DNA of 64,000 bases from a virus. Lineage: Duplodnaviria; Heunggongvirae; Uroviricota; Caudoviricetes. Every line of letters starts with the position of its first letter. Positions within the stretch are counted from its first letter, which is position 1. Both the position numbers and the translations under genes were made by a program. Where the stretch lies: IMG/VR virus record IMGVR_UViG_3300038360_000413. One strand, given 5' to 3'. The notes under the pieces are model-generated. The model did no database searches, was not told the DNA's origin, and saw only the letters and a list, made by a program, of their open reading frames with translations. Below are positions 19,387 to 33,522 of the stretch, piece after piece.

Positions 19387-19402
19387 TTTACAGGAATCAA
19401 AT

Positions 19403-20259: not shown

Positions 20260-20269
20260 AAGGAAAATA

Positions 20270-20434: not shown

Positions 20435-20437
20435 ATT

Positions 20438-20456
20438 CCGGGCGGAATTCCGCCCA
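20438..20456 (+). terminator. GC hairpin (CCGGGCGGAATTCCGCCC), possible terminator
   Basis: Perfect palindrome immediately after the small ORF. Confidence 0.35.
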
Positions 20457-20460
20457 TTCT

Positions 20461-20533
20461 AGTGTGATGACCGGGGGCTAGGCATCTGGGTTTTGGAAAC
20501 CTGGATAGATGGGTTCGACGCCCATTCACGCTA
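20461..20533 (+). tRNA. tRNA-Pro (anticodon TGG), D-arm imperfect
   Basis: Acceptor AGTGTGA/TCACGCT, anticodon stem TGGGT/ACCTG, loop TTTGGAA, T-arm ATGGG-TTCGACG-CCCAT. Confidence 0.45.
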
Positions 20534-20557
20534 CAAATAAAATCAGAAAGGCATAAC

Positions 20558-20872
20558 ATGAGAAAAACAATAGATCTATACAGATTTAGAAAAGACGGTT
20601 CGCGAGTATTTAGTGGACGAGATCTCGGTGCATTTGCACGCAAAGCTTGTTACCTTCCAGCTATCGAATTTTTCTTCAAAGAAATAGTAATTGAACTACC
20701 TACAGATACAATAGCAATTAATCCTTCATTCTTTATAGCAATGTTTGGCCCTTCCGTAAAAAGGCTTGGCGAAGCTAAGTTTAAAAAGAAATATAACTTT
20801 GTTTGCTATAAAAGCATTGAACAGGATATTGAGGAAGGTATCAAAGACTGTTTAATGAGAAATAAAATATAA
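20558..20872 (+). CDS. hypothetical protein
   Basis: 104-aa ORF. Confidence 0.4.
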   Translation: MRKTIDLYRFRKDGSRVFSGRDLGAFARKACYLPAIEFFFKEIVIELPTDTIAINPSFFIAMFGPSVKRLGEAKFKKKYNFVCYKSIEQDIEEGIKDCLMRNKI

Positions 20873-21660
20873 TGAAACCTAGAACATTAGTCATGGGCGA
20901 TTTACATGGAGCTCTCAAAGCATTTAAACAATGCATGGAGCGCTGTGAATTCGACTATGAAAACGATACTCTTATATTTATAGGAGACGCGGCCGATGGC
21001 TGGTCCGATGTAGCAGAGGGCATAAATGAACTTCTAAAAATTAAAAACTTAGTATTCATTATGGGTAATCACGACGCATGGCTGCTCGGTTGGCTACAAT
21101 ATGGACAAGCTCCAGAGCTATGGCTAGAACAAGGCGGAGATGAAACAATAGCCAGCTATGTAATGGCTCCAGTCAAGTGGAGAGACAAACATAGATACTT
21201 TCTTGAGAATAAAACTAAACTATACCACATAGACGAACTTAATAATGTTTATGTGCACGGCGGTTTTCATCATAAATACCCCATATCCAAAGAATCAACA
21301 TATAATTTAATGTGGGATAGAACTCTTCTCAATGTTGCTCGTATATACGAAAAACAAGGACATAAGTTTGAAAACTACAGAATTATTTTTGTTGGACACA
21401 CAGCAACTACAGGAATAACAGGCGGCGACGAACCAACATTCTTTTCAAACCTGGTTATGACTGATACAGGCGCTGGATGGTTCGGAAAATTAACCGTTAT
21501 GGATGTTGAAACTTTCGAGTTTTGGCAATCAGACAAGGTCGAAGAACTCTATCCTGAAGAACATGTTGTACGAGTTGCAAAACGCAAAAAAAGAATGAAA
21601 GAAGAAGAGATGAAAGAAAATCTAAGATTCTTTTATGAAAATGAAATAAAGAAAAAGTAG
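20872..21660 (+). CDS. calcineurin-like metallophosphatase (Ser/Thr phosphatase or ApaH-like)
   Basis: GDLHG, GDAADGW, GNHD motifs in canonical order. Confidence 0.7.
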   Translation: MKPRTLVMGDLHGALKAFKQCMERCEFDYENDTLIFIGDAADGWSDVAEGINELLKIKNLVFIMGNHDAWLLGWLQYGQAPELWLEQGGDETIASYVMAPVKWRDKHRYFLENKTKLYHIDELNNVYVHGGFHHKYPISKESTYNLMWDRTLLNVARIYEKQGHKFENYRIIFVGHTATTGITGGDEPTFFSNLVMTDTGAGWFGKLTVMDVETFEFWQSDKVEELYPEEHVVRVAKRKKRMKEEEMKENLRFFYENEIKKK

Positions 21661-21661
21661 T

Positions 21662-21745
21662 GCTGATATTTCCTGAGAGGTCAAAAGGTTCTGATTTGTA
21701 ATCAGATGACGAAAGTCTTCGCAGGTTCGAATCCTGCTATCAGCC
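21662..21745 (+). tRNA. type-II-like tRNA (long variable arm) with anticodon read as TGT
   Basis: Acceptor GCTGATA/TATCAGC, 3-bp D-stem with large loop, anticodon stem TCTGA/TCAGA, loop TTTGTAA, 14-nt variable hairpin GAC-GAAA-GTC, T-arm GCAGG-TTCGAAT-CCTGC. Confidence 0.5.
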
Positions 21746-21766
21746 CAACAAATAAAAGGAACAAAA

Positions 21767-22222
21767 ATGAAAACATTAAACAAAATAATCTTCAACGCAA
21801 AAAAGCCCTCGGGTTATGATGAATACTTTTCTAATTTCGCAGATTCTCCTATTACAATTGATGATATTAAATACCCAACAGTAGAACATGCATTTCAGGC
21901 ACACAAAACCATCAGCCCAACATTGCGTGTTGAAATGGCACAAATGCCAACACCAGGAAAAGCTAAACGTGCGGGTCGCAGAGTAAGCCTTCGCCCAGAT
22001 TGGGAAGAAGTAAAATATGACGTAATGGTCGTTTGCCTAAGAGAAAAGTTCAAGATAGAACTTTACAAAAAAATATTACTCTGTACACAAGATGTTGAAA
22101 TCATAGAAGACGCTGCCCAGTGGAATGACACTGAGTGGGGAATTGGAAAAGACGGAAAAGGCAAAAACCTTTTAGGAAAAGCATTAATGCAAGTAAGAAA
22201 GGAACTAAATGAAAACAAGTAA
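21767..22222 (+). CDS. NADAR-domain protein (YbiA/DUF1768 family)
   Basis: YFSNF...YPTVEHAFQAHK motif typical of NADAR. Confidence 0.55.
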   Translation: MKTLNKIIFNAKKPSGYDEYFSNFADSPITIDDIKYPTVEHAFQAHKTISPTLRVEMAQMPTPGKAKRAGRRVSLRPDWEEVKYDVMVVCLREKFKIELYKKILLCTQDVEIIEDAAQWNDTEWGIGKDGKGKNLLGKALMQVRKELNENK

Positions 22223-22571
22223 AGCGTTTACAGTAATTGAATTAATACTCGTAATAACAATAGTAGGTATTATGGTTACAGTTGGATACCAAAAATTCTC
22301 AAAAGATAAACACAATCAAGAATCATCGACATATACAGAGTATATAGAGGATGAGTATCCTACCGAAGTATCTTCCACACTGCAGTCAGAATTTACTGTC
22401 GTTATTTATGATGAGCAATGGAACGAAACACATAGAGAAACGTTCATTGCTGGACATGCGTTAGTAGAGAAACATAAACTAACTCTTTCTGACAAAAGAA
22501 AAGGAAATATAATTCAGATAATGTATATCAAAGATGAAAATTGGAAACTAATAGAAAACAAAAAATATTAA
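22209..22571 (+). CDS. type IV pilin-like (prepilin N-terminus) protein
   Basis: N-terminus KAFTVIELILVITIVGIM resembles the class III signal/N-methyl-Phe pilin motif. Confidence 0.45.
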   Translation: MKTSKAFTVIELILVITIVGIMVTVGYQKFSKDKHNQESSTYTEYIEDEYPTEVSSTLQSEFTVVIYDEQWNETHRETFIAGHALVEKHKLTLSDKRKGNIIQIMYIKDENWKLIENKKY

Positions 22572-22578
22572 TTTAAAT

Positions 22579-22666
22579 GGATCTGTAAAGTATTAAGGCA
22601 GGTACCCCAGTCTGTAAAACTGGTCCCTTAGGGGTCGAGTGGGTTCAATTCCCTCCAGATTCACCA
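22579..22666 (+). tRNA. tRNA-Tyr (anticodon GTA), type II
   Basis: Acceptor GGATCTG/CAGATTC, anticodon stem CCAGT/ACTGG, loop CTGTAAA, long variable arm, CCA encoded. Confidence 0.65.
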
Positions 22667-22670
22667 TTTC

Positions 22671-22746
22671 GCTCTGGTAGCTCCAATGTTAGAGCAATCG
22701 GCTGATAACCGATAGGTTGGTAGTTCAAGTCTACCTCAGAGCACCA
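22671..22746 (+). tRNA. tRNA-Ile (anticodon GAT)
   Basis: Acceptor GCTCTGG/TCAGAGC, D-stem GCTC/GAGC, anticodon stem ATCGG/CCGAT, loop CTGATAA, T-arm GGTAG-TTCAAGT-CTACC, CCA encoded. Confidence 0.75.
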
Positions 22747-22762
22747 ATAACCAAAAACAAAC

Positions 22763-23119
22763 ATGAAAATTGATTTTAATCAAGTAATAACTAATGCTTT
22801 ATCAGCGTTAGTAACCCTAGTTCTTATAAGCGCTTTCGGAATGATGTGGCGCGGATATTCAACCATAGACACTTCTATAAGCCTAGCAACTGACGAAATA
22901 AAAAAGGCTGTAGAGGAGTTAACCAGTAATACCACATATACAGTCGAAGCAGTTGAACTAATAGAAGAAGAGCTAGCAAACCTTCATAATAGAATTGATA
23001 ATATTCCCACAGAAATATCGGAGGCAGAAGCTGAATCAGAAGTATTTTTCGAGGAAAGCTTCCAGGAACGTCCAAAGGAATATATACAACGTCAATTACC
23101 AAACCTAAAAAAGAAATAA
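22763..23119 (+). CDS. hypothetical protein (N-terminal TM, acidic C-terminus)
   Basis: 118-aa ORF. Confidence 0.4.
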   Translation: MKIDFNQVITNALSALVTLVLISAFGMMWRGYSTIDTSISLATDEIKKAVEELTSNTTYTVEAVELIEEELANLHNRIDNIPTEISEAEAESEVFFEESFQERPKEYIQRQLPNLKKK

Positions 23120-23132
23120 TATAGGATACAAA

Positions 23133-23402
23133 ATGCCTTATTTAAGTAGAACATTATGTTCGGTTCTCGATGAAATGAGGGCCTGCCATAAAACTAGAAA
23201 TTTTACATATTTACCAGGGCTTATCGAAGAGGCACAATCAATGGGAAACCGCATGGAAGCCGCTATCGAGGATAAGAATGATTTGGATACTTACCGAAGA
23301 CAAGGTAAGGCAGTAGAAAAGGAAAACAAAAAGCTTAGAAAAGAGCAAAAGGCTCTTCAAGAAGAAATCGAAAAGCTAAAGAAAAAGAAAGAAAAACCTT
23401 AA
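23133..23402 (+). CDS. hypothetical coiled-coil protein
   Basis: 89-aa ORF, K/E-rich C-terminus. Confidence 0.35.
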   Translation: MPYLSRTLCSVLDEMRACHKTRNFTYLPGLIEEAQSMGNRMEAAIEDKNDLDTYRRQGKAVEKENKKLRKEQKALQEEIEKLKKKKEKP

Positions 23403-23426
23403 CATAAACTTTTAGAAAGGAATTAC

Positions 23427-24590
23427 ATGTTTAAAACAATACCTAGCATCTTATGGAATGATTTTTATCAGTTCACAATGCAGAATGCTGTATTTCAACT
23501 ATTTCCTAACGTAATAAGCAGAGATCGACTCATCACTCGTGGTCATAAAATTAAATATGATGAGTTAATGGTAGGCGAATTAAAAAGGCACATTAGAAAC
23601 ATGTCAGAATTACGCTTACGTGCGCATGAATGTGTGTTTATGCATGCGCAAGGTATTTTTCCACATACTTACTTAGAATACTTAAATGGATATCAATACG
23701 ATCCAACTGAATTGGTAATTCAAAATATAGACGGCTACTTAGATATCTATTCAGAAGGATATACTTATAGCACTATGCTTTGGGAGACACCTATTTTGGC
23801 ACTAATCACTTGGTTAGGCTTAAAATATGATGAAACACAGCAAATGCCTTCCCAAGAAATAATTCGAAAAGAATCGCAGGAAAAAGCGAGTCGAATTAAA
23901 ATGGAAGGGTTGAAAGTTGCTGATTTTGGAGCACGCAGAGCGTTATCTCCAGAAATACATGCCAACGTGGTTGAAACTATGAAAAAATCTTTAGTTGGTA
24001 CCAGCAATGCTTACTTAGCCATGAAAAATGGAATCAAACCTATTGGCACGCAAGCACATAAATGGTATATGCTTAACGCAGCAATATACGGCTACAATAT
24101 GGCAAATCATTTCGGACTTGAAAATTGGGTAAAAGTATATGATGGCAATCTAGGAATAGCTTTACCTGACACATTTACCACACCGGTTTTTCTAGAACAA
24201 ATGACTACCAAACAAACAAAGTTATTTGATGGAATGCGCCAAGATAGTGCCAGTCCGACAAAAATTGGAGAGTCATATATTCGACACTATAAAGATCACC
24301 AGGTCGACCCTCTAACTAAAACTGCTATATTTTCTAATGCTCTTAATTTAGTAAAAGCCGTAGGACTAAGAGATTGGTTTGATGGTAAAATACAAACAGC
24401 ATTTGGAATGGGTGGGTTTCTTACAAACCATCTTGCAGGTATCAAAGTACCAAGCACAGTCTGGAAACTTTCAGAAGTAATGGTGCACGACAAATGGATA
24501 CCTGTGGTCAAACTATCAGATGATCCAGGAAAATATTCCGGAACAGTAGAAGAAATGCAGAGATGCAGAACAACATTGCGGTTAGATTAA
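23427..24590 (+). CDS. pncB: nicotinate phosphoribosyltransferase-like (NAPRTase family)
   Basis: N-terminus LWNDFYQFTMQNAVF matches the NAPRTase N-terminal signature (D-x-Y-K/Q-x-T-M); about 387 aa. Confidence 0.65.
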   Translation: MFKTIPSILWNDFYQFTMQNAVFQLFPNVISRDRLITRGHKIKYDELMVGELKRHIRNMSELRLRAHECVFMHAQGIFPHTYLEYLNGYQYDPTELVIQNIDGYLDIYSEGYTYSTMLWETPILALITWLGLKYDETQQMPSQEIIRKESQEKASRIKMEGLKVADFGARRALSPEIHANVVETMKKSLVGTSNAYLAMKNGIKPIGTQAHKWYMLNAAIYGYNMANHFGLENWVKVYDGNLGIALPDTFTTPVFLEQMTTKQTKLFDGMRQDSASPTKIGESYIRHYKDHQVDPLTKTAIFSNALNLVKAVGLRDWFDGKIQTAFGMGGFLTNHLAGIKVPSTVWKLSEVMVHDKWIPVVKLSDDPGKYSGTVEEMQRCRTTLRLD

Positions 24591-24604
24591 AATCGCACAA
24601 TTAT

Positions 24605-24707
24605 GCACGGTTGGCGCAATCCAAACGCAGCGGCCCGTAAAGCCGTCCCCTTTTAAATAGCTAGCTTACTTAAAGGGTTGGGGGTTAGAGTCCCTCGCCG
24701 TGCTCCA
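24605..24707 (+). tRNA. 103-nt type II tRNA-like gene (anticodon loop CCGTAAA, GTA) with about 30-nt variable arm
   Basis: Acceptor GCACGGT/GCCGTGC, anticodon stem GCGGC/GCCGT, T-arm GGGGG-TTAGAGT-CCCTC (non-canonical T-loop), variable hairpin CCCTTTTAA...TTAAAGGG, CCA encoded. Confidence 0.35.
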
Positions 24708-24711
24708 TTTT

Positions 24712-24803
24712 ACTCCTGTAGTTATAATTGGTAAAACGGCTGATTTATAATCAGTATAGCGTCAGATGAACGTGAGTTCCAGGTTCGAGTCCTGGTGGGA
24801 GTA
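24712..24803 (+). tRNA. type-II-like tRNA (23-nt variable arm) with anticodon read as TAT
   Basis: Acceptor ACTCCTG/TGGGAGT, anticodon stem GCTGA/TCAGT, loop TTTATAA, variable hairpin CGT-CAGATGA-ACG, T-arm CCAGG-TTCGAGT-CCTGG. Confidence 0.45.
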
Positions 24804-24824
24804 CAAACAAAGAAAGGAAACAAA

Positions 24825-24989
24825 ATGATTAAAGCACTGTTCAATGAACTGTATTTAATGACAACACCGATGCTAATGTTTATACATGAATTTTGTGGAG
24901 CATTTGCATTTGGGACATATGAGCAACGTATGCAAACATATGTATTGTGTATAGGCATATTTATGTTTAACATAGCAAAATCTAAATAA
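24825..24989 (+). CDS. small hydrophobic protein
   Basis: RBS AAAGGAAACAAA before ATG; 54 aa. Confidence 0.3.
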   Translation: MIKALFNELYLMTTPMLMFIHEFCGAFAFGTYEQRMQTYVLCIGIFMFNIAKSK

Positions 24990-24995
24990 AAAATT

Positions 24996-25083
24996 GGAGG
25001 CGTAAGCATAATTGGTACTGCACCGGTCTTGAAAACCGTTCAGGGTAACACCTGTGTGAGTTCAAGTCTCTCCGCCTCCGCCA
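24996..25083 (+). tRNA. tRNA-Ser (anticodon TGA), type II
   Basis: Acceptor GGAGGCG/CGCCTCC, loop CTTGAAA, long variable arm, T-loop TTCAAGT, CCA encoded. Confidence 0.65.
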
Positions 25084-25104
25084 ATTAACAAGAAAGGAAA
25101 CATA

Positions 25105-25413
25105 TTGAATACTTCAAAACTTCGCCGCACAATAATAGCAGTTTCGATTGTATTACTTATAATTAATAGTTTAATAATATTTACAAGAAATGAACCTATA
25201 GAGGATGAGTACTACGCACCAATACCTGAAGCTTATGAAATGCAGGTTGAAAATGCAGAAATTGAGCCTGTAAATATAACAGCAAATACAGACGAACCGG
25301 CGTCAACAGAATCAAGCGAAGATGATAACGAGGGATTTTTCTTCGGATTTAGCTTTTTTCAAATAATTATAGCCTGGTGGGCCATTAAAGCCGTTCTTAA
25401 ATTATCTAACTAA
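25105..25413 (+). CDS. membrane protein with acidic linker
   Basis: N- and C-terminal hydrophobic segments. Confidence 0.4.
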   Translation: MNTSKLRRTIIAVSIVLLIINSLIIFTRNEPIEDEYYAPIPEAYEMQVENAEIEPVNITANTDEPASTESSEDDNEGFFFGFSFFQIIIAWWAIKAVLKLSN

Positions 25414-25482
25414 ATCTAACGCACGAATTGGATACAATCCGGAAGGCACTCATGAGTGCTGACGTCTCCAACGTGCGACCAC

Positions 25483-25556
25483 GCACCTGTGGCGCAGCGG
25501 TCTAACGCAGCGGATTCTTACTCCGAAGATCGAAGGTTCAAATCCTTCCAGGTGCA
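25483..25556 (+). tRNA. tRNA-Lys (anticodon CTT)
   Basis: Acceptor GCACCTG/CAGGTGC, loop TTCTTAC, T-arm GAAGG-TTCAAAT-CCTTC. Confidence 0.5.
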
Positions 25557-25559
25557 CAT

Positions 25560-25701
25560 GGCTGAGTAGCGAAATTGGTACACGTTATGACCGGGTCAAC
25601 GTATGAGCATGCAAGCGCCCCGAGAACAACCTGTTGTTTAAAATATGTTTAGCGGCATATGGGACAATAGGAAGTTGAAGGTTCGAATCCTTCCTCGGCC
25701 A
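25560..25701 (+). ncRNA. 142-nt tRNA-like gene with an internal insertion of about 65 nt (or degenerate tRNA)
   Basis: Acceptor GGCTGAG pairs with CTCGGCC 142 nt downstream next to a perfect T-arm GAAGG-TTCGAAT-CCTTC; interior does not fold as a standard cloverleaf. Confidence 0.3.
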
Positions 25702-25726
25702 CACAAATAAATTAACCAACAACAGA

Positions 25727-26185
25727 ATGTACGATTCAGCACCAGATACAATAAAACATATAGCAAGAGTGAAGCACTTCATAGGTGCCATAGCACATGA
25801 GCTAACAAAAAGAGGAGTTCAACATGACGCCTCTAAATTACAATCTCCAGAAAAAGAAACGTTTGACGAACTAACTCCTAAACTAAAAGAATTAAAATAT
25901 GATTCTCCAGAATACCGAGAATCGTTAAAAGAATTAGGAACAGCTTTAGAACATCATTACAACGCCAATTCCCACCATCCAGAACATTACGAAAATGGAA
26001 TAGATGATATGAACTTATTAGATATAGTAGAAATGTTTTGCGATTGGGCAGCGGCAACGGAGAGAACAAAAGACGGAAACTTAGAAGTTTCCATTGAAAA
26101 AAATAAAATTAGATTTGGAATGTCTGATCAGTTAGTAAATATATTTAGAAATTCCATAGAGTTATTAAAAGACAATAATAAATAA
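25727..26185 (+). CDS. HD-domain phosphohydrolase
   Basis: H...HD...D motif (AIAHEL...VQHDASK). Confidence 0.5.
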   Translation: MYDSAPDTIKHIARVKHFIGAIAHELTKRGVQHDASKLQSPEKETFDELTPKLKELKYDSPEYRESLKELGTALEHHYNANSHHPEHYENGIDDMNLLDIVEMFCDWAAATERTKDGNLEVSIEKNKIRFGMSDQLVNIFRNSIELLKDNNK

Positions 26186-26192
26186 CAAAAAT

Positions 26193-26264
26193 AGTGCCGT
26201 AGCTGAGGGGTTTTAGCAATGGTCTTTTAAATCATCGACGTGGGTTCGATTCCCACCGGCGCTA
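26193..26264 (+). tRNA. tRNA-Lys (anticodon TTT)
   Basis: Acceptor AGTGCCG/CGGCGCT, anticodon stem ATGGT/ATCAT, loop CTTTTAA, T-arm GTGGG-TTCGATT-CCCAC. Confidence 0.65.
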
Positions 26265-26313
26265 CAAGTAGTATATTACTACTTCAAGAATAAATAACAA
26301 ATAAAGGAACAAT

Positions 26314-27078
26314 ATGAAAAAGATACTTTTGATTTGTGCAATACTGTTTGCATTTGTATCAGCTCAAACCACTACATTTAGCTTTCCAGCTATAGATACT
26401 TCAATATCTCGCGATATCGCAGTTACTGGTGACTTTGAGACATTTATAGATGTTACTAACAGTGATGCCCTTACCAATGATCTGGGCTATTTAGGCTTCC
26501 AACTTGAAGGAACTAATTGGAACCTCGGCCTCAATATTGAAAATCAGTTAGTTAACGTAGAAGAAGCCAATATCAGCCTTGGAATGTTTACAATGGGACT
26601 ACAGCCACTTCCTTACGGAAATGCTTGGGCCTTACATAGACCTTCTCAAAGCGATTTCTATTCAACTCCTAGAATGCACGACGTACAAACGGGAATTTTA
26701 GTAGGGGATAGGGACTTTGGAATCTTCTATCAGGACAACGACAATTATTGTTGGAGAATTGCTCCAAGTTTCAATGATTTTTTCTGGGTAGATACTATAC
26801 AGTTAGGATATTCCGATAGTGGCACAGAAGGTGTAGAAGCTATTTGGGATTTTAATACTGAAGCTACTCTTTTCAATATGACTGAAAAAGTTCAATTCGA
26901 ATATCTCGATGACGATTTTCTTTGGTACACAACTTCTGTACAACGTGGAAACATGGTAGGTATGTTCGGCGAAATGAACGACGAATCCCTCTGGGGACTT
27001 GGTTATCATTTTGGCGATGTATATCTTGTGTATGAAGATGGTGAATCTCAGATATTATCATTATCAGTAAGCTTCTAA
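26314..27078 (+). CDS. secreted protein (signal peptide)
   Basis: MKKILLICAILFAFVSAQ signal-like N-terminus. Confidence 0.45.
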   Translation: MKKILLICAILFAFVSAQTTTFSFPAIDTSISRDIAVTGDFETFIDVTNSDALTNDLGYLGFQLEGTNWNLGLNIENQLVNVEEANISLGMFTMGLQPLPYGNAWALHRPSQSDFYSTPRMHDVQTGILVGDRDFGIFYQDNDNYCWRIAPSFNDFFWVDTIQLGYSDSGTEGVEAIWDFNTEATLFNMTEKVQFEYLDDDFLWYTTSVQRGNMVGMFGEMNDESLWGLGYHFGDVYLVYEDGESQILSLSVSF

Positions 27079-27116
27079 AAGTTTTATAGCAGATACTTGA
27101 CAGAAGTCAGTCGCTA

Positions 27117-27150
27117 ATCCCGGTAGGTTCTGCCTATCGGGATTGCTTTA
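27117..27150 (+). terminator. rho-independent terminator (11-bp stem)
   Basis: ATCCCGGTAGG-TTCT-GCCTATCGGGAT then TTGCTTTA. Confidence 0.55.
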
Positions 27151-27151
27151 C

Positions 27152-27235
27152 GGTTCTGTGGCGTAATTGGCAGGCGCGCTGTGCTCAAAATGCAGTGTCC
27201 GAAAGGACGTGTGAGTTCAAGTCTCACCAGAATCA
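27152..27235 (+). tRNA. tRNA-Leu (anticodon CAA), type II
   Basis: Acceptor GGTTCTG/CAGAATC, loop CTCAAAA, variable hairpin GTCC-GAAA-GGAC, T-arm GTGAG-TTCAAGT-CTCAC. Confidence 0.65.
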
Positions 27236-27310
27236 CTAATTAATCAGAAAATAAATAACATGAAAAAGGAATATATCGCACTTTAACACCCTTAAATAGG
27301 AGAAGTTAAA

Positions 27311-27508
27311 GTGAAAAACAAAATGTACGAAGAGTTTGCATGGACTACTATTAATAGGCTATACAAAATACTCTATAAAAGAAAAGAATTCAGCCGCAGA
27401 AATATTAATTGTGATAGATGCCCATACCATGGCGGTTGGGAAAATGGCTCATTTATTCGTGATAGAAATTGGAAACGATTTAGAAAAACCAAACACCAGT
27501 ATAAATAA
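27311..27508 (+). CDS. small basic protein
   Basis: 65-aa ORF. Confidence 0.3.
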   Translation: MKNKMYEEFAWTTINRLYKILYKRKEFSRRNINCDRCPYHGGWENGSFIRDRNWKRFRKTKHQYK

Positions 27509-27509
27509 C

Positions 27510-27595
27510 GGCCGGGTGGTGAAACTGGTAGACGCACCGGACTTAAAATCCGACGGGCCTTTGTGCCCATACGAGTTCGAAGCTCGTCTCGGCCA
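27510..27595 (+). tRNA. tRNA-Leu (anticodon TAA), type II
   Basis: Acceptor GGCCGGG/CTCGGCC, loop CTTAAAA, long variable arm, T-arm ACGAG-TTCGAAG-CTCGT. Confidence 0.65.
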
Positions 27596-27874
27596 CTTTG
27601 AAAAGACCTATCCCATGACTTAGGTGTCGGAGGATACGCGATCTGTACTACAGACATGCTAAGCCCCACTAAATATCTGGTATCTCCAGAGGCCGCGAAC
27701 CTGTAGGCACCACTGAGCAACTAGCTGAAATGTATTAAGCCGTATAGTGTAGTGAGAGTGGGAATAATTGGCCCATAACATATAGTTGATAACGCGGGAT
27801 ACAACCTGTTATCTGTAAAATTCGCTATATGAATGATCAAGCGTAAAAAAGCCTTCATAGGTCTTTTCAACTAA

Positions 27875-27945
27875 TGCCCCGTGGTATAATGGTAGAACAC
27901 AAGGTTTTGGTCCTTGGGACAGCGGTTCGATTCCGCTCGGGGTTG
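27875..27945 (+). tRNA. tRNA-Gln (anticodon TTG)
   Basis: Anticodon stem CAAGG/CCTTG, loop TTTTGGT, T-arm AGCGG-TTCGATT-CCGCT; position 1:72 unpaired as in many Gln tRNAs. Confidence 0.6.
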
Positions 27946-27969
27946 CAAATAACATAATCAATAAACTAA

Positions 27970-28179
27970 GTGAAACATATTACAATAATAAATTTTAAAG
28001 AATTTTCTTCAGAACAATTAAAATTATTAAAAGCAACGACGAGAGAAGATGATTTTATTATAGAAATGAATGATTTTTTTAAACTATTGGAAACATTGAC
28101 AACTGAAAAAAGGAAAGAATTAGAATGGAAACTCAAACACATAAAATTAAATGTGAAACAATGGGTCGGAAACGATTAG
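27970..28179 (+). CDS. hypothetical protein (overlaps next ORF by 55 nt in another frame)
   Basis: 69-aa ORF ending in TAG. Confidence 0.3.
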   Translation: MKHITIINFKEFSSEQLKLLKATTREDDFIIEMNDFFKLLETLTTEKRKELEWKLKHIKLNVKQWVGND

Positions 28180-28925
28180 TTACAACAGGCACTACTGATG
28201 CAAGTTCACAACGTTGGGATAGAGTAGCTCATCCTGAAAAAGGATTAGTAGTAAAAAATCAATGGGAAGATTTAAAGCCTTTTTGTGACATTACTCTTTT
28301 ACGAGAAATGGCCCTCATAGGTCCAAATTTAGAAACACACTTATCAGAAAGTAATAGTGAAATTATAATACCGATTGAATTTGATTATAGCACTGCAGAA
28401 ATTCTTACTAAAAAAGCCAACGAGTTACCTCTTATAAATAGAAACCGTATACCCATAGTGTTGAGAGGGGAATTTTTCGATATATTAATAAATACAAAAA
28501 CATTTGAAAAATATGAATTCACGTATTTAGATTTTGACGGCATGTGTGGGTACGATACAGCAGAGCACAGAACAACGATAGCTAAAAGTCTTAAACACGT
28601 ACTAGATGTGTATACTCCAAAGCAATTAATTATTAGATTTACTTTTATACAAAGTCTTCGATGTGCACATACTAATGGTATTGATATAATAAGAGATATG
28701 AGCAAACTTGGGTTTTTTTTAATACCAGCAAAGTTTTCTATAAAAAACAATTTAGAATCTTCAGGTTTCATAAATAACCATGATCAATTTGATTATGTGA
28801 GCTTAATTAATCGTGAAAAAAACATAATTGAAAAAATGAATGCTCCAAAAGAATCTTGTTACTATTATAGAAATCAAGGACGCATGGCACACATGTTGAC
28901 AAATCAATTTATATATGTAGCATAA
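28125..28925 (+). CDS. hypothetical protein
   Basis: 266-aa ORF. Confidence 0.45.
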   Translation: METQTHKIKCETMGRKRLVTTGTTDASSQRWDRVAHPEKGLVVKNQWEDLKPFCDITLLREMALIGPNLETHLSESNSEIIIPIEFDYSTAEILTKKANELPLINRNRIPIVLRGEFFDILINTKTFEKYEFTYLDFDGMCGYDTAEHRTTIAKSLKHVLDVYTPKQLIIRFTFIQSLRCAHTNGIDIIRDMSKLGFFLIPAKFSIKNNLESSGFINNHDQFDYVSLINREKNIIEKMNAPKESCYYYRNQGRMAHMLTNQFIYVA

Positions 28926-28931
28926 AACTTA

Positions 28932-29021
28932 TGCCAGGGTGGGGAAATTTTGGTAGACCCGATACGTTTAGGCCGTATTGATCTTTATGGTCGTGCAGGT
29001 TCGATGCCTGTCCCTGGTACC
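28932..29021 (+). tRNA. tRNA-Leu (anticodon TAG), type II
   Basis: Acceptor GCCAGGG/CCCTGGT, D-stem GGG/CCC, anticodon stem ATACG/CGTAT, loop TTTAGGC, CCA encoded. Confidence 0.6.
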
Positions 29022-29046
29022 AACTTAATAATAAAGGAACAGTAAA

Positions 29047-29421
29047 ATGTTTATAACAAAAGAGTATCTTTCTAATAATCCTGACCACATATTCGTCTTT
29101 GGAGACAATGTTCTGCGATACGGATATGGTGGAGCAGCATCATTACGAGATATGAAAAATACATATGGTTTTATTACTAAACGAAAGCCTAATAATGAAA
29201 AATCTTCGTTCTACAAACCAGACAATTATAAAACTATGTTTGCGGCGGAACTTTTAGATTTGGAAACTGTAATACAGGCACATCCAGAACGAACATATTT
29301 GATTTCTAAACTCGGAGACGGATTAGCTAACAAATACAAGATCTGGGAAGAAGTAATAAAAGATGGTATAAGAATATTAGAGAAATATCCTAACGTAAAA
29401 TTTCTCTTTAAATTCAAATAA
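29047..29421 (+). CDS. hypothetical protein (IFVFGDN...GYGGAA motif)
   Basis: 124-aa ORF; motif hints at a Rossmann-like nucleotide-processing fold, unverified. Confidence 0.4.
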   Translation: MFITKEYLSNNPDHIFVFGDNVLRYGYGGAASLRDMKNTYGFITKRKPNNEKSSFYKPDNYKTMFAAELLDLETVIQAHPERTYLISKLGDGLANKYKIWEEVIKDGIRILEKYPNVKFLFKFK

Positions 29422-29426
29422 ACTAT

Positions 29427-29502
29427 TCTAGGGTAGCTCAATTGGTAGAGCGCCTGATTGTTAATCAGGTGGTTGAGAGTTCAAGTCTCTCCCCTAGAGC
29501 CA
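29427..29502 (+). tRNA. tRNA-Asn (anticodon GTT)
   Basis: Acceptor TCTAGGG/CCCTAGA, D-stem GCTC/GAGC, anticodon stem CCTGA/TCAGG, loop TTGTTAA, T-arm GAGAG-TTCAAGT-CTCTC, CCA encoded. Confidence 0.8.
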
Positions 29503-29504
29503 TG

Positions 29505-29557
29505 CTCCCCCTTTGCGCAAGCCCCGACCTCATGAGTTGACGGCGGGGGAGCTACCA
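29505..29557 (+). ncRNA. 53-nt GC-clamped hairpin/minihelix ending ...GGGGGAGC-T-ACCA
   Basis: GCTCCCCC pairs with GGGGGAGC around a 37-nt interior; no T- or anticodon arm. Confidence 0.25.
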
Positions 29558-29573
29558 ATTAATTAAAATTCCG

Positions 29574-29646
29574 ACGCGGGATAACAGTCAATGCAGATTT
29601 TTGGGCTCATACCCCGGAGCGTGTAGGTTCAAGTCCTACTCCCGCT
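29574..29646 (+). tRNA. tRNA-Met (CAT), initiator-like
   Basis: Loop CTCATAC; three G:C pairs at the base of the anticodon stem (GGG/CCC); position 1:72 C-U unpaired. Confidence 0.55.
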
Positions 29647-29669
29647 ACTAATAACAACATAAAATTCTG

Positions 29670-29747
29670 ACGCAGGGTGATAGCAGTCCGGTAGCTTGCG
29701 AGGCTCATAACCTTGAGGTCGGGGGTTCGAATCCCTCCCCTGCAACC
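29670..29747 (+). tRNA. tRNA with CAT anticodon (elongator Met or Ile2)
   Basis: Acceptor CGCAGGG/CCCTGCA (C1-A72 mismatch), loop CTCATAA, T-arm GGGGG-TTCGAAT-CCCTC, CCA encoded. Confidence 0.6.
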
Positions 29748-29766
29748 ATTTAAAAAAAGGAAACAC

Positions 29767-30255
29767 ATGATAACAATTGGATTATTCGGAACTTGTGGCA
29801 ACAGTAAATGGAGAGATCCATTTATAAGAGTCTACACTGATGAAAAAATTAATTTTTTTAATCCTCAGGTTGAAGATTGGAAACCAGAAGATGCAGCAAT
29901 TGAAGCGGAACATCTGGCATCTGATCAAATAATACTATTTCCCATCACTAGCGAAACCTATGCAATAGGTTCATTAGCAGAAACAGGATTTAGTATTTTA
30001 AATGCTATTAAATTAGATGACCGTAGAGATTTCATAATCTTTATTGATCCTAACTTGGATGAAGTATTAGATAATGAAGTAGCTAGAAAAGAGAGTCTTA
30101 GAGCTCGCGCCTTAGTTCTACAGCATCTTAAAAAGCTGCGTTTGGGTAATTTGTATGTAGTAAATTCATTAGAAGTAATGCTTATTACTAGTATTAGATT
30201 AAATGAAATTGCTCTTATTAAAGAACCCTTGAAGCAGTTTAATCCACATAAATAA
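29767..30255 (+). CDS. hypothetical protein
   Basis: Start moved to ATG after the tRNA (MITIGLFGTCGNSKW...). Confidence 0.45.
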   Translation: MITIGLFGTCGNSKWRDPFIRVYTDEKINFFNPQVEDWKPEDAAIEAEHLASDQIILFPITSETYAIGSLAETGFSILNAIKLDDRRDFIIFIDPNLDEVLDNEVARKESLRARALVLQHLKKLRLGNLYVVNSLEVMLITSIRLNEIALIKEPLKQFNPHK

Positions 30256-30262
30256 ATATCTT

Positions 30263-30336
30263 CTCGATGTAGCCAAGGCTGGTAAGGCGGCACTTTCATA
30301 AGGTGTGTATCGGAGGTTCAAATCCTCCTATCGGGA
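30263..30336 (+). tRNA. tRNA with CAT anticodon (third copy; Met or Ile2)
   Basis: Acceptor CTCGATG/TATCGGG (two G-U pairs), D-stem GCC/GGC, loop TTCATAA, T-arm GGAGG-TTCAAAT-CCTCC. Confidence 0.5.
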
Positions 30337-30338
30337 CT

Positions 30339-30424
30339 GTGTAGGTGGTAGATTTGGGAATACACTCGGCTGTGACCCGAGTTGGAGACAGCTCCTCATG
30401 CGGGTTCGAACCCCGTCCTACACC
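30339..30424 (+). tRNA. type-II tRNA (long variable arm) with anticodon GTG
   Basis: Perfect acceptor GTGTAGG/CCTACAC, 3-bp D-stem GTA/TAC, perfect anticodon stem CTCGG/CCGAG, loop CTGTGAC, variable hairpin GGAG-ACAG-CTCC, T-arm GCGGG-TTCGAAC-CCCGT. Confidence 0.55.
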
Positions 30425-30461
30425 CAAATAAGAAAACATTCCAACAAAATAAGGAAAGGAA

Positions 30462-31451
30462 ATGCAAACGAAAAACAGAAAATATAGCCCTCCCACAGAG
30501 GTATCCGATCAACCTGGTATTCCCGAAACAGCCTTCGATGTGACAGAACAAGATTCAAATACGATATTAGTATTCCAAAACTATTATACACAGTATCAAG
30601 TTAGTGCTGGAAAAGATTACACTCCCTGCCCAGAAACGGTTTCCAGCATACCAAGTGGTTGCTATAAAACCGGATGGAACGGCAATCTAAGCATTCCAGT
30701 TTTTGAAAAACAACCATTTAATATATCTGAACTAATCAGATTTGAAGATAGTATTTTTGAAGAAATTATCGATGAAATTGCAGTTTTTTGGACTATGAAG
30801 CAGAAATACTTAGAACATGGTGAATCACATAAACGAGGATTTTTATTATACGGACCTCCGGGCGGTGGAAAAACATCTTTAGTTAAGCTATTAGTAGATG
30901 ATTTTATTAAAAATGAAGGAATTGTATTTTATTTTACATACCACATAGACGATGGCATCAAAAGATTTAGAGAAATTGAACCCGATGTTCCAGTAATGAT
31001 TATATTAGAGGATATAGACTCTCTCATACAAGATGGTGATTCGGAAAATAAAATACTAGGCTTATTAGATGGAGAAATTCAGTTAGAAAATACTATAATT
31101 TTAGCAACTACAAACTATCCAGAACGTTTGCCTGACAGAATTAAGAATAGACCTTCACGATTTGATAGAATCGAGGCAGTAGGGTTGCCGTCAGCTAAAG
31201 ACAGGACAGTTTATTTGAAAGCAAAAAACACAACTTTGACTTCTGTTCAAATTAAAAAATGGACAAAAGACACTAAAGGGTTTACACTTGCACATATAAA
31301 AGAATTACTACTATCGGTAGAAGTTTTTAATTTAAAGTACGAAGACACTTTAACACGATTAAATATCATGAGAGAAAGATTAGCTACATCTAAAGATTTT
31401 GAAAAGGATATGAACATTAAAAAAACTGGACACGACATAGGTTTTAATTAA
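30462..31451 (+). CDS. AAA+ ATPase
   Basis: Walker A GPPGGGKT, Walker B IILEDID, arginine-finger region; about 330 aa. Confidence 0.7.
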   Translation: MQTKNRKYSPPTEVSDQPGIPETAFDVTEQDSNTILVFQNYYTQYQVSAGKDYTPCPETVSSIPSGCYKTGWNGNLSIPVFEKQPFNISELIRFEDSIFEEIIDEIAVFWTMKQKYLEHGESHKRGFLLYGPPGGGKTSLVKLLVDDFIKNEGIVFYFTYHIDDGIKRFREIEPDVPVMIILEDIDSLIQDGDSENKILGLLDGEIQLENTIILATTNYPERLPDRIKNRPSRFDRIEAVGLPSAKDRTVYLKAKNTTLTSVQIKKWTKDTKGFTLAHIKELLLSVEVFNLKYEDTLTRLNIMRERLATSKDFEKDMNIKKTGHDIGFN

Positions 31452-31466
31452 TCAATTAACAAACTA

Positions 31467-31550
31467 GGGGCGATGCTAGAGCGGTCGAATAGGGTGGTTT
31501 GCAAAACCATCGAGTATATCTCCACATCAGTTCGAATCTGATTCGTCCCT
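31467..31550 (+). tRNA. tRNA with Cys anticodon (GCA) but a 15-nt variable region
   Basis: Acceptor GGGGCGA/TCGTCCC, anticodon stem GTGGT/ACCAT, loop TTGCAAA, T-arm ATCAG-TTCGAAT-CTGAT. Confidence 0.45.
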
Positions 31551-31569
31551 CAAATAACCAAGAAAGATT

Positions 31570-31968
31570 ATGACAACAATAACAACATTATTCATAATAA
31601 TGTGGATTCTTGGAGCGCATACGGCATCGGATTATTTTCTGCAGCCAAAAGATGCTGCTAAAAAGAAATCCATAGACTTAAAAGTCTTTTTACAACACAT
31701 ACTTATATATACAGTAGCCATGAGTATTTTAGTAGGCACTCCTTTAATAATAATTTTAGGATGGACTGAAGCGTCTGTAATGGCGGTGTTACTTTGGCTA
31801 CTTATAACAGGATGCGCGCACTTGTTAGTCGATATATTTACAAAGCATGTTTACATGCATTATTTTTTATTAAGACAAAACAAGAATTTGATTAACGCAA
31901 TTGGTGTCGATCAATATGCACATCAGGTATTTTTAATACTTGCATTTATGTTTGTATTTTTACTATAA
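31570..31968 (+). CDS. integral membrane protein (4 TM)
   Basis: Hydrophobicity pattern. Confidence 0.45.
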   Translation: MTTITTLFIIMWILGAHTASDYFLQPKDAAKKKSIDLKVFLQHILIYTVAMSILVGTPLIIILGWTEASVMAVLLWLLITGCAHLLVDIFTKHVYMHYFLLRQNKNLINAIGVDQYAHQVFLILAFMFVFLL

Positions 31969-31974
31969 TTAATT

Positions 31975-32054
31975 GAGGGTATGGTGAAGTCCGGTCAAAC
32001 ACGTACGGCTTACATCCGTATATTCCCTAGGTTCGAATCCTAGTATCCTCACAA
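31975..32054 (+). tRNA. tRNA-Val (anticodon TAC)
   Basis: Acceptor GAGGGTA/TATCCTC, anticodon stem TACGG/CCGTA, loop CTTACAT, T-arm CTAGG-TTCGAAT-CCTAG. Confidence 0.65.
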
Positions 32055-32171
32055 ACAACTTAACAACAGGAGAGCATCATGCTATAGAAAGCATTATATA
32101 ATAAATCACCTCCTTAAGTACTGTATTTTCCTATAAACAGTAACTTAAAACAATTAACAAGGTAATTTATT

Positions 32172-32483
32172 ATGAACCAAGAAATCTTAAAAATAAAAGA
32201 AGAACAAAAAGCGTTAGGCAAACACATCCGTGAACTTAAAAAGAAAAGAAAAGGAAACGGATCAGATTGGAGACTTCAATGTGAGATAGAAGAAAAATCA
32301 CGTGAGTTCAGACACAAACATATCGCTAGATGTGAATTAAGGGGTCGCACAAGAGAACAAATTGAAGCAAAAGTTAGAGACGGCAACGAGCCTAATGAGT
32401 CTCAAATATCAGTATACAAATCCAAATATTTAAAAAGAATCGAATCGGCTATGGAGCCTGTCTTAGAAAAGGTGGCTTCATAA
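32172..32483 (+). CDS. hypothetical basic protein
   Basis: 103-aa ORF. Confidence 0.4.
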   Translation: MNQEILKIKEEQKALGKHIRELKKKRKGNGSDWRLQCEIEEKSREFRHKHIARCELRGRTREQIEAKVRDGNEPNESQISVYKSKYLKRIESAMEPVLEKVAS

Positions 32484-32779
32484 TGGAGCCGTATTTATAT
32501 ATTATTTGTCGAAGAGATCTGGACCCGGTGTATGCTGCGGTCCAGGGAGGACATGCTTTAGCAGACTTTTTGTTACGTAAAAAACAAAATGACTGGAACA
32601 ATAATTATCTCATATACTTAACAGTTCGAGATGAAAAAGCATTACAGAAATTACGAGACAAACTAATATACAAAGATATAGAAATCGGAAGTTTTAAAGA
32701 ACCAGATTTAAAAGACGAATTAACAGCGCTTGCTATAGAGAATAATCAATCTCTGTTTAAACGCCTGCAAGTACTATAA
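32483..32779 (+). CDS. PTH2-like (aminoacyl/peptidyl-tRNA hydrolase family) candidate
   Basis: AAVQGGHALA segment resembles the PTH2 active-site region. Confidence 0.35.
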   Translation: MEPYLYIICRRDLDPVYAAVQGGHALADFLLRKKQNDWNNNYLIYLTVRDEKALQKLRDKLIYKDIEIGSFKEPDLKDELTALAIENNQSLFKRLQVL

Positions 32780-32785
32780 GCAAAT

Positions 32786-32859: not shown

Positions 32860-32870
32860 CATAAAATTAA

Positions 32871-32943: not shown

Positions 32944-32964
32944 ACAACAATAGGAACAAAAAAA

Positions 32965-33513: not shown

Positions 33514-33522
33514 AAGACTTTT

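Follow-up and report, generated by a model that had tools for sequence, protein, structure and literature searches.

Textbooks restrict the long variable arm of bacterial transfer RNAs (tRNAs) to those for leucine (Leu), serine (Ser), tyrosine (Tyr), and selenocysteine (Sec). Four tRNA genes in a 64,000-nucleotide (nt) stretch of DNA from a virus of the Caudoviricetes (IMG/VR record IMGVR_UViG_3300038360_000413; the whole stretch is referred to here as the window) carry such arms with the anticodons UGU (Thr), UAU (Ile), GUG (His), and GCA (Cys). Two groups of exceptions have been described. According to Mukai et al. (2017; PMC5389517), allo-tRNAs bear long arms on many non-Leu/Ser/Tyr anticodons, as the four genes of the window do, with UAU the commonest, and are found, often clustered, in Acidobacteria, Proteobacteria, and phages. 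Their 12-bp acceptor/T branch is split 8/4 or 9/3, the D stem is long and carries a tetraloop, and the identity is that of Ser (G73 or U73 with a Ser-type arm) or Ala (G3:U70), whereas the window genes have 7/5 stems and cognate marks. The nev-tRNAs (Hamashima et al. 2012; PMC3333845) are eukaryotic and nematode-specific; these class II tRNAs have the anticodon CCC (Gly) or UAU (Ile) and are reported to accept leucine in vitro. The window genes carry the marks of their own anticodon's amino acid. These known exceptions are mischarging or non-translating oddities. The four genes described here are most likely class-II-shaped tRNAs with cognate non-Leu/Ser/Tyr identity.

All four genes lie on the plus strand and were called by ARAGORN at exactly the coordinates given in an earlier note on this DNA. 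In each, ARAGORN finds an acceptor stem of 7 bp, a T stem of 5 bp, an anticodon loop of 7 nt, and U33, and Rfam agrees on the 7/5 stems and the loop. The tRNA-Thr(UGU) gene (21662..21746, 85 nt; anticodon 21697-21699) has a 14-nt variable arm (21707-21720, t-GAC-GAAA-GTC-ttc) in which the 3-bp stem GAC/GTC closes a GAAA loop and is followed by a 3-nt spacer on its 3' side. In the tRNA-Ile(UAU) gene (24712..24804, 93 nt; anticodon 24746-24748), the 23-nt arm (24756-24778) consists of a 4-bp stem, GCGT/ACGT, a 7-nt loop, CAGATGA (24763-24769, with GAU at 24765-24767), and a 5-nt spacer. The tRNA-His(GUG) gene (30339..30425, 87 nt; anticodon 30372-30374) possesses a 17-nt arm (30383-30399) with a 4-bp stem, GGAG/CTCC, a 4-nt loop, and a 4-nt spacer. 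The tRNA-Cys(GCA) gene (31467..31551, 85 nt; anticodon 31501-31503) has a 14-nt arm (31512-31525, GAG-tatat-CTC-cac) with a 3-bp stem, GAG/CTC, a 5-nt loop, and a 3-nt spacer. With variable regions of 14, 23, 17, and 14 nt (Thr, Ile, His, Cys) and stems of 3-4 bp, all four fall within class II as defined by a region of at least 10 nt that forms a stem-loop. The Thr, His, and Cys genes also have the class II D arm, a 3-bp stem with a loop of about 10-11 nt (11, 10, and 11 nt; the Cys loop is GAGCGGTCGAA). The Ile gene has an ordinary-looking, class-I-like D arm (3 pairs and an A-A mismatch), and its family is mixed, with 3 or 4 bp and loops of 6-8 nt.

Against Rfam RF00005, the Thr, Ile, and His genes scored 48.8, 51.2, and 50.5 bits, respectively. 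The Cys gene scored 48.6 bits with the speed filters relaxed; a default gathering run had missed it and five ordinary tRNAs because of those filters. Neither ARAGORN nor Rfam proposed an alternative fold with an 8-nt loop for any of the four, which was one of the outcomes that the earlier note had said would undo its reading. The clean cloverleaves with 14-23-nt variable arms and the anticodons TGT, TAT, GTG, and GCA that it had described are therefore borne out by automated folding. It had recognized hairpins in three of the long arms; the hairpins are real, but all four arms form them. Independent assemblies from ENA, JGI, and Logan samples (L001-L009) all agree, wherever they cover the four genes, on the sequence of the genes and of their flanks; the genes are therefore not assembly artefacts.

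Compared with the allo-tRNAs, the four genes show a 7/5 split, 3-bp D stems with 9-11 nt loops, no G3:U70, and short arms with 3-5 nt spacers. A nearer likeness is present in cultured phages. About 100 records of T5-like phages contain an 87-nt long-arm tRNA-Thr(UGU) that is annotated simply as tRNA-Thr (for example AJ604531, and Lindwurm, OK143207). It shares with the window Thr gene G1:C72, C2:G71, the 3-bp D stem, the 11-nt D loop, and the anticodon-stem sequence UAAUCA. Its 15-nt arm has a 3-bp stem and a tetraloop as in the window gene, and it belongs to the same scanned family (L011). It differs in having A73 and an encoded CCA, whereas the window Thr gene has C73 and encodes only C74, and global identity is at most about 73%. 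A literature search found no paper that discusses the class II shape of the T5-like tRNA-Thr, and a search on phage tRNAs with a long arm or class II shape did not find these families described.

The likely amino acid of each tRNA can be read from its identity marks. In Escherichia coli, G1:C72, C2:G71, G35, and U36 define Thr, U73 and GCA define Cys, G-1:C73 defines His, and A73 is needed for Ile, Leu, and Tyr (reviewed in PMC9976931). The complete Thr set is present in 21662-21746, in which the anticodon stem reads U36-AAUCA and the discriminator is C73. Both Cys marks are present in 31467-31551. The window His gene combines GUG with the pairing of G1-U2-G3 to C70-A71-C72, followed by C73, and this top is the commonest pattern of short-arm phage tRNA-His. 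The window Ile gene has A1:U72 and C2:G71 and, of the E. coli marks for Ile, C4:G69, A73, A37, and A38; its anticodon is UAU, where those rules call for GAU or lysidine-AU, a departure for which the GAU of its arm loop might compensate. None of the four shows the Ser set (a long arm stem with a 1-nt spacer, G2:C71, and usually G73). In the order Thr, Ile, His, and Cys, the spacers are 3, 5, 4, and 3 nt, the 2:71 pairs are C:G, C:G, U:A, and G:C, and the discriminators are C, A, C, and U. As for Leu and Tyr, A73 occurs only in Ile(UAU), where the spacer is 5 nt rather than the 2 nt of Leu; Tyr identity also calls for G34 and U35, and the Ile anticodon is UAU. The Thr, His, and Cys genes, with C73, C73, and U73, do not have the A73 that bacterial leucyl-tRNA synthetase (LeuRS) requires. 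The nev-tRNAs, by contrast, carry Leu identity.

The same marks run through the families to which the four genes belong. Viral contigs were scanned with patterns that fixed the anticodon loop, the T loop, and a gap longer than a class I tRNA can have, and the matches were validated with ARAGORN. The acceptor ends lay outside all of the scan patterns, and therefore the acceptor marks are an independent read-out. Counts from these scans are lower bounds, and the comparisons of marks, geometry, and relatives cover the matches listed. Long-arm Thr(UGU) tRNAs have G1:C72 in 75/76 and C2:G71 in 76/76, with the discriminator U in 63, A in 11, and C in 2; in short-arm phage tRNA-Thr, the figures are 64/68 and 62/68, with U in 59. 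Ser tRNAs have G2:C71 in 109/121 and G73 in 91/121. A73 was found in all 117 Leu and in 55/56 Tyr tRNAs. U73 is present in 64/69 long and 19/21 short Cys tRNAs. All 17 long-arm His tRNAs have C73, and 15 of them have G at position -1, compared with 56/2084 in the background. Long-arm Ile(UAU) tRNAs have A73 in 8/8 of a first sample and in nearly all of the larger set.

These families are common in phages. At least 78 distinct long-arm Thr(UGU) sequences were found in 102 viral loci, at least 69 distinct Cys(GCA) sequences in 110 viral loci, and at least 50 distinct Ile(UAU) sequences in viral loci. His(GUG) is represented by at least five distinct viral and 12 metagenomic sequences; the metagenome scan gave 13 real genes in 120 loci, and the remainder were mostly chance matches. 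The closest relative of each window gene, among the matches listed, is a long-arm tRNA of another phage with the same anticodon (72-86% identity). The upper value belongs to the Thr gene and its relatives in L070, L092, L119, and L133, viral contigs of 100-205 kb that carry close homologues of the window Thr and His genes as an adjacent pair. Within the window, identity of the four to the Ser, Leu, and Tyr genes does not exceed 68%, which is no more than unrelated tRNAs share with each other. The earlier note had placed three of the anticodons one position-36 substitution from long-arm anticodons; the idea that the genes are single position-36 mutants of local Ser, Leu, or Tyr genes is not supported by these values.

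Long arms were also met on Asn, Lys, Gln, Met, Val, Glu, Phe, Pro, Trp, and Arg tRNAs. The long-arm share was counted for each anticodon in loci chosen without regard to that anticodon, in a sample biased to phages that already hold at least one long-arm tRNA. It is 22% for Thr(UGU), 21% for Ile(UAU), 11% for Cys, 10% for Asn(GUU), 8-10% for Lys, and 9% for Gln(UUG). Most other anticodons are at or below 6%, and Ala, Gly(GCC), and Arg(ACG) are at 0%. Val(GAC) and Arg(CCU) reach 12% and 11%, each from only 8-9 sequences. Among arrays with at least eight tRNAs, a short Cys gene stands beside a long one in 0/69, and a short Thr(UGU) gene beside a long one in 6/58. Since the two forms are never or rarely together, the long forms replace the ordinary short-arm gene. 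The reverse case was also seen. Many phage and mobile-element arrays contain a tRNA-Leu with a short, class-I-like variable loop (76-78 nt in all), such as 5366-5442 of L409 (the T5-like phage Lindwurm) and genes in L386, L389, and L398. In the pooled set, the variable region is under 10 nt in 19-42% of Leu genes, depending on the anticodon.

The geometry of the arm separates the long-arm families from Ser and Leu tRNAs. On the 3' side of the arm stem, Ser tRNAs leave a spacer of 1 nt unpaired, Leu tRNAs one of 2 nt, and Tyr tRNAs one of 3 nt; among the long types, the spacer measures 3-4 nt (Thr), 3 nt (Cys), and 5-6 nt (Ile). The 1-nt spacer was found in 109/162 Ser tRNAs. Arm stems are 3-4 bp in the long types versus 5-6 bp in Ser. 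The window itself has canonical class II genes for comparison, all on the plus strand: tRNA-Tyr (22579-22666), tRNA-Ser (24996-25083 and 41207-41293), and tRNA-Leu (27152-27236, 27510-27596, and 28933-29022). Their spacers are 4 nt in Tyr, 1 nt in Ser, and 2 nt in Leu, and those of the long-arm genes are 3 nt in Thr, 4 nt in His, 3 nt in Cys, and 5 nt in Ile. In geometry the arms resemble those of Tyr and not those of Ser or Leu. A 3-bp D stem and a D loop of about 11 nt (of the GAGYGGYYRAA kind) are common to the long Thr, His, and Cys families, whereas short Thr and His tRNAs have 4 bp and 7-9 nt.

The arm helices of these families are under selection, because pairing exceeds that of shuffled arms and the stem pairs vary and covary. 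At least 3 bp can form in 88% of Thr and 91% of Cys arms, versus 48% and 45% of shuffled ones. About 37 different arm stem sequences were found in each of the Thr and Cys families, and in register-matched sub-alignments each Thr stem pair occurs as three or four Watson-Crick types. These sub-alignments were picked by ARAGORN's predicted register and so pair at 100% by construction; only the diversity of pair types is informative in them, and the shuffle test is the unbiased measure. RNAalifold did not predict the arm stem from a MAFFT alignment of 50 long-arm Thr tRNAs, in which loops of unequal length were misaligned. The arm loop of the Thr, His, and Cys types is a GNRA-type tetraloop with no conserved sequence.

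Codon use fits the same picture. In the 40 largest open reading frames (ORFs) of the window, ACA makes up 42% of Thr codons and AUA 43% of Ile codons, and each is the commonest for its amino acid. Together they account for 771 codons, or 6% of all. Apart from the long-arm genes, the array has no tRNA for Thr, His, or Cys. Taken together, the cognate marks, the geometry, the replacement of short forms, and the codon use make cognate charging the best reading and mischarging with Ser or Leu unlikely. The four are probably genuine elongator tRNAs on a class II body with cognate identity, charged most likely by the threonyl-, isoleucyl-, histidyl-, and cysteinyl-tRNA synthetases (ThrRS, IleRS, HisRS, and CysRS). 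They would serve as the phage's own decoders of ACA (ACN), AUA, CAY, and UGY. Each type would be an old lineage that recurs in the tRNA arrays of phages and mobile elements and substitutes for the short-arm gene. The second option of the earlier note, co-opted scaffolds with a new identity, fits these data. Both the actual charging and the benefit of the arm are what we infer from such features.

As to why a phage would use this body, the leading guess for Thr, His, and Cys, and a tentative one, is escape from host defences that cut tRNAs. The defence nucleases in question would read the class I tRNA body as well as the anticodon arm. A class II body, with its enlarged D loop, 3-bp D stem, and protruding arm, would make the phage isoacceptor a poor substrate for the nuclease that can still be charged. 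The AriB nuclease of PARIS cuts the E. coli tRNAs for Lys (UUU), for Thr (UGU), and for Asn (GUU) at U36AAUC|A41, and it also reads U16-U17 of the D loop, according to an AlphaFold 3 model and a U16C mutant (PMC12409363). Phage tRNAs that evade such nucleases are isoacceptors of the cut tRNAs, including Thr(UGU), Asn(GUU), and Lys(UUU), and escape partly through features in the D loop, distant from where the nuclease cuts (van den Berg 2023, PMC10264068; PMC12409363). Those tRNAs have base changes in the anticodon loop or stem and in the D loop of a class I body, whereas the window genes show a change of the whole body with an added arm. The site UAAUCA is intact in the window Thr gene and in the T5-like long-arm tRNA-Thr. 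UAAUC is kept in 42/78 (54%) of long-arm Thr(UGU) tRNAs versus 18/51 (35%) of short ones (Fisher p=0.048). Reference T5 (NC_005859) has a 75-nt short tRNA-Thr(UGU) with an altered site in the anticodon stem, UAAGCA, and at the corresponding spot in their tRNA region T5 relatives carry the long-arm form, in which the site is unchanged. Because long Thr forms keep UAAUC(A) while the short T5 form has changed it, the new body plan may be an alternative to altering the cut site. A T5-like tRNA-Asn(GUU) also bears an arm hairpin, and Thr(UGU) heads the long-arm shares given above (22%). A GenBank note to AJ604531 (Bacteriophage 5) states that a CUA derivative of the long-arm tRNA-Thr is an effective amber suppressor, and therefore the long-arm body is processed and used by the ribosome. 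In the window, tRNA-Lys(UUU) (26193-26265) reads U36-A-A-A-U-C, with A at position 39; it has the same U39-to-A change that makes T5 tRNA-Lys resistant to AriB (PMC12409363).

A number of observations weigh against cognate charging or against nuclease escape. The T5 tRNA-Thr that was tested against PARIS is the short 75-nt form of reference T5 (NC_005859), and the idea that the T5 tRNA-Thr(UGU) countering PARIS is the long-arm form was dropped for this reason. PARIS is not known to target Cys, His, or Ile(UAU) tRNAs. The window tRNA-Asn(GUU) (29427-29502) is short and keeps UAAUCA. The long-arm shares of Cys, Asn(GUU), and Lys are at the level of Val(GAC), Arg(CCU), and Gln, and all of the shares carry the bias of their sample. 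The amber-suppressor record shows that the T5-like tRNA-Thr is compatible with the ribosome, not what amino acid it carries. The identity rules were worked out in E. coli and a few other models and may not be those of the host. Only 64 kb of the genome is visible, and short-arm Thr, His, and Cys genes could sit elsewhere. Finally, the window His gene does not encode the G-1 that 15/17 of its long-arm relatives encode, and HisRS may charge it poorly unless G-1 is added post-transcriptionally.

The His gene begins 1 nt past a tRNA-Met gene (30263-30337), and base -1 (30338) is T, so the G-1 of the bacterial G-1:C73 pair is not encoded. Its closest relative among the matches listed has G-1 and a U1-C72 mismatch. 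The metagenomic long-arm His tRNA L463 is clearly without G-1, like the window gene. The window tRNA-His may be charged without G-1, may have G-1 added after transcription, or may be a weak substrate. No Thg1-like gene was found among the Pfam-annotated genes at 20-41 kb. A second fold can be drawn for this gene, with an 8/4 split or with G30339 as G-1 opposite C72 of the standard fold and CCA then encoded, but it was provisionally set aside for the 7/5 fold. The 7/5 fold was preferred because it is fully Watson-Crick save for a G49:U65 wobble in the T stem and keeps U8. The numbering follows from the relative in L070, in which position 72 is C, position 73 is C, and CCA follows.

Other explanations of the four genes were weighed against cognate charging with a beneficial arm. 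The one that survives best is that the tRNAs are correctly charged but that the arm has no function, although this appears unlikely. The arm would be a tolerated legacy of a class II ancestor, for example one like tRNA-Tyr, and its helix would be kept lest a floppy insert harm folding. Both the arm geometry and the D arm of Thr, His, and Cys match tRNA-Tyr, and the Tyr anticodon GUA is one base from GUG, GCA, and GUU. The unconserved GNRA-type tetraloops also fit a legacy, as does the presence in phages of both short- and long-arm versions of one anticodon. A legacy is harder to reconcile with a type that recurs in very diverse phages and displaces the short form, and with a share as uneven as 22% for Thr(UGU) versus none for Ala, Gly(GCC), and Arg(ACG). 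Neutrality also does not explain the invariant loop triplet of the Ile(UAU) arm.

It is very unlikely that the four are non-decoding RNAs, either tRNA-like decoys or sponges for host tRNA-cutting enzymes or regulators. There are precedents: according to Mukai et al. (PMC5389517), six allo-tRNA(UAU) variants were inactive as suppressors and non-translational roles were suggested, and Belukhina et al. considered that over-expressed viral tRNAs possibly inhibit AriB by competition. The window genes nevertheless conserve the canonical features of decoding (U33, a purine at 37, a T loop of GTTCRAnnC, and 7/5 stems) together with their identity marks. They fill otherwise empty slots of a near-complete tRNA set, and a derivative of the T5-like long-arm tRNA-Thr suppresses amber codons.

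Most improbable is the targeted mistranslation that the earlier note had raised, in which the seryl-tRNA synthetase (SerRS), LeuRS, or TyrRS would grip the long arm and cause miscoding at ACA, AUA, CAY, and UGY, perhaps damaging host proteins. SerRS does hold its tRNA chiefly by the long arm, a single base separates three of the four anticodons from class II ones, and published work reports allo-tRNAs with non-Ser anticodons that insert Ser in E. coli (PMC5389517) and leucylation in vitro of nev-tRNAs with Gly or Ile anticodons. However, the acceptor ends are cognate (the window Thr gene has C2:G71, not the G2:C71 of Ser, and the discriminators are C, A, C, and U), none of the four joins A73 to a Leu or Tyr anticodon, and none is a recent mutant of a local Ser, Leu, or Tyr gene. 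The stems of 3-4 bp and spacers of 3-5 nt depart from the 5-6 bp and 1 nt of Ser and the 2 nt of Leu, and SerRS is sensitive to arm geometry, in that one bulge abolishes charging (PMC7590224). The array's only Thr, His, and Cys tRNAs are among the four, and they read the phage's most-used Thr and Ile codons, so that with 771 ACA and AUA codons in 40 ORFs miscoding would hit the phage itself.

Within the reading of cognate charging, the Ile(UAU) arm deserves separate attention. Its design is separate from that of Thr, His, and Cys, with a mostly ordinary D arm, an arm stem of 4-6 bp, a spacer of 5-6 nt, and a 7-nt loop. In 43 of 51 distinct Ile(UAU) arms, counting that of the window, the triplet GAU is central in a loop closed by at least 3 bp. 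Forty-two of these loops are 7 nt and one is 5 nt; in the 42, positions 3-5 never vary. The loop starts with C or U, A predominates at positions 2 and 7, and U predominates at position 6, which gives the consensus Y-A-G-A-U-U-A; the window loop is CAGAUGA. Shuffled Ile arms gave a mean of 1.1 cases of central GAU and a maximum of 5 in 500 trials. Among other long arms, central GAU was found in 2/154 Ser tRNAs and in none of the Leu, Tyr, Thr, Cys, Asn, and Met tRNAs. All four pairs of the Ile arm stem vary on both sides, with a covariation score of 0.60 versus 0.14 in shuffled sets (0/500 exceed it) and at most 0.10 when the partners are slid.

The arm is also present outside phages. The clean pattern, including the GAU arm, was found in 37 contigs of bacterial genomes, most of them dense tRNA arrays of Acidobacteriota. 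This resembles the distribution of the allo-tRNAs. Other bacterial holders of a GAU-arm tRNA(UAU) include Acidithiobacillus, roseobacters, and Prevotella, among others. The loci L371-L407 are very dense arrays, with up to 38 tRNAs in 8 kb, from metagenome-assembled genomes of Acidobacteriota and an Acidithiobacillus chromosome, and each has a long-arm tRNA(UAU). Several Bryobacterales arrays also carry a tRNA with the anticodon ACA. Some bacterial and some phage copies of the GAU-arm tRNA have a D arm like that of Sec or allo-tRNAs (a 4-5 bp stem and a tetraloop). These copies are probably the allo-tRNA(UAU) group of Mukai et al., which is atypical and inactive as Ser suppressors. The main text of Mukai et al. 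(2017; PMC5389517) makes no mention of a GAU arm loop. In the viral loci L314, L323, and L060, long-arm tRNA(UAU) genes without the GAU loop share 7-nt loops of CTAACAA, CTAGCAA, or CTCACAA, which hints at another conserved kind of arm.

The major tRNA-Ile has the anticodon GAU. A tRNA with the UAU anticodon is a poor substrate of E. coli IleRS (PMC3575796), and an engineered variable-arm hairpin that displays the cognate anticodon improved charging by the synthetase (Mukai 2020, PMC7590224). These three points together make it attractive to regard the Ile(UAU) arm as a natural pseudo-anticodon arm, in which GAU could attract IleRS or whatever else reads the anticodon loop of tRNA-Ile, or could serve as a decoy for such a reader. 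More broadly, class-II-shaped Thr, Cys, His, and Asn tRNAs could be a general device of phages by which a tRNA stays chargeable yet hidden from defence nucleases. The idea is possible, though doubtful. The engineered arms show the cognate triplet in a hairpin as the Ile(UAU) arm shows GAU, but they are synthetic and work with a HisRS to which an extra anticodon-binding domain was fused; the arm of Ile(UAU) is natural and has no known partner protein. A literature search on natural pseudo-anticodon arms found no description of one. If the idea is true, the GAU arm would let one tRNA gene work in many hosts without TilS.

The four genes belong to an array of 26 ARAGORN tRNAs and a transfer-messenger RNA (tmRNA), with small ORFs interspersed, at 17099..43750 on the plus strand (ARAGORN, Rfam). 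It holds about one decoder per amino acid, and no Ala or Arg tRNAs were found in it. At 32786-32860, within the array, is a tRNA with a CUA anticodon, an amber suppressor that ARAGORN labels 'Pyl'; similar CUA tRNAs are present in many of the compared phage arrays, with 22 distinct sequences. TAG is the stop codon of 5/40 large ORFs, and the standard code reads the large ORFs through intact. The CAU tRNA at 29671-29748 has the C1-A72 mismatch that is a hallmark of bacterial initiator tRNA, and the other CAU tRNA (30263-30337) could be elongator Met or a lysidine-type Ile2. At 36548-36615, Rfam (43 bits) but not ARAGORN sees a tRNA-like sequence with normal acceptor, D, and T arms. About 18 nt lie between its D and T arms, which leaves room for a 3-bp stem and a 5-nt loop (GGG-TCGCT-CCC), and it may be a degenerate tRNA or a non-decoding tRNA-like RNA. 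The tmRNA (43370-43750, 88.8 bits in Rfam) stands at the end of the array and has the tag peptide GKTQFALAA. The 3' ends of the array (17099-41293) mostly read N73-C and then become A-rich (often CAAATAA or CAAACAA), so that C74 alone is encoded; in seven tRNA genes, CCA is encoded in full. Such ends suggest a common signal for 3' processing and reliance on a CCA-adding enzyme.

Protein-coding genes are interleaved with the tRNAs. Those at 20872-24590, 38946-39482, and 40274-40825 encode a metallophosphoesterase, a NADAR protein, a nicotinate phosphoribosyltransferase, a nucleotidyltransferase with a weak NMNAT-like match, and a SpoU-type RNA methyltransferase. They make up a salvage set for nicotinamide adenine dinucleotide (NAD) and a possible tRNA-modifying enzyme. 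An HNH endonuclease is encoded at 32965-33513. The AAA ATPase encoded between the His and Cys genes has no relatives in viral contigs, and an exact-protein look-up gave near-identical strains only, which confirms the sequence and carries no information on divergence.

The window, with a guanine plus cytosine content of about 36%, appears to be a portion of a large phage genome. Its minus strand encodes a split multisubunit RNA polymerase (48865-55929). One of the polymerase ORFs (48865-53526, minus strand; 1553 aa) fuses RNA polymerase beta-type domain 6 with beta-prime-type domains. Residues 193-245 of this ORF match LAGLIDADG weakly, below the Pfam cut-off, and may be an intein or a homing-endonuclease insertion. 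Megablast of 21-33 kb against cultured phages gave a single 63-nt match in tRNA-Met and nothing else, and the relatives found with the polymerase subunit are at most 30% identical. On both grounds, the phage has no close cultured relative.

The worth of these findings lies in the commonness of long-arm forms in phages and in the invariant GAU loop of the Ile(UAU) arm, which would be, to our knowledge, the first natural second anticodon-like loop on a decoding tRNA. In the window, the long arm is borne by 7/5 tRNAs with the marks of Thr, Cys, His, and Ile. For annotation, tools based on isotype models may flag such genes as mismatches or pseudogenes, and such a flag is not evidence of recoding. 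If the four are charged correctly, then ThrRS, CysRS, HisRS, and IleRS tolerate a class II body, and these tRNAs would be natural, orthogonal-looking scaffolds for genetic-code engineers. It would also follow that phages repeatedly choose the class II body for particular anticodons, and escape from PARIS and other immunity that cuts tRNAs would be testable in culturable T5-like phages.

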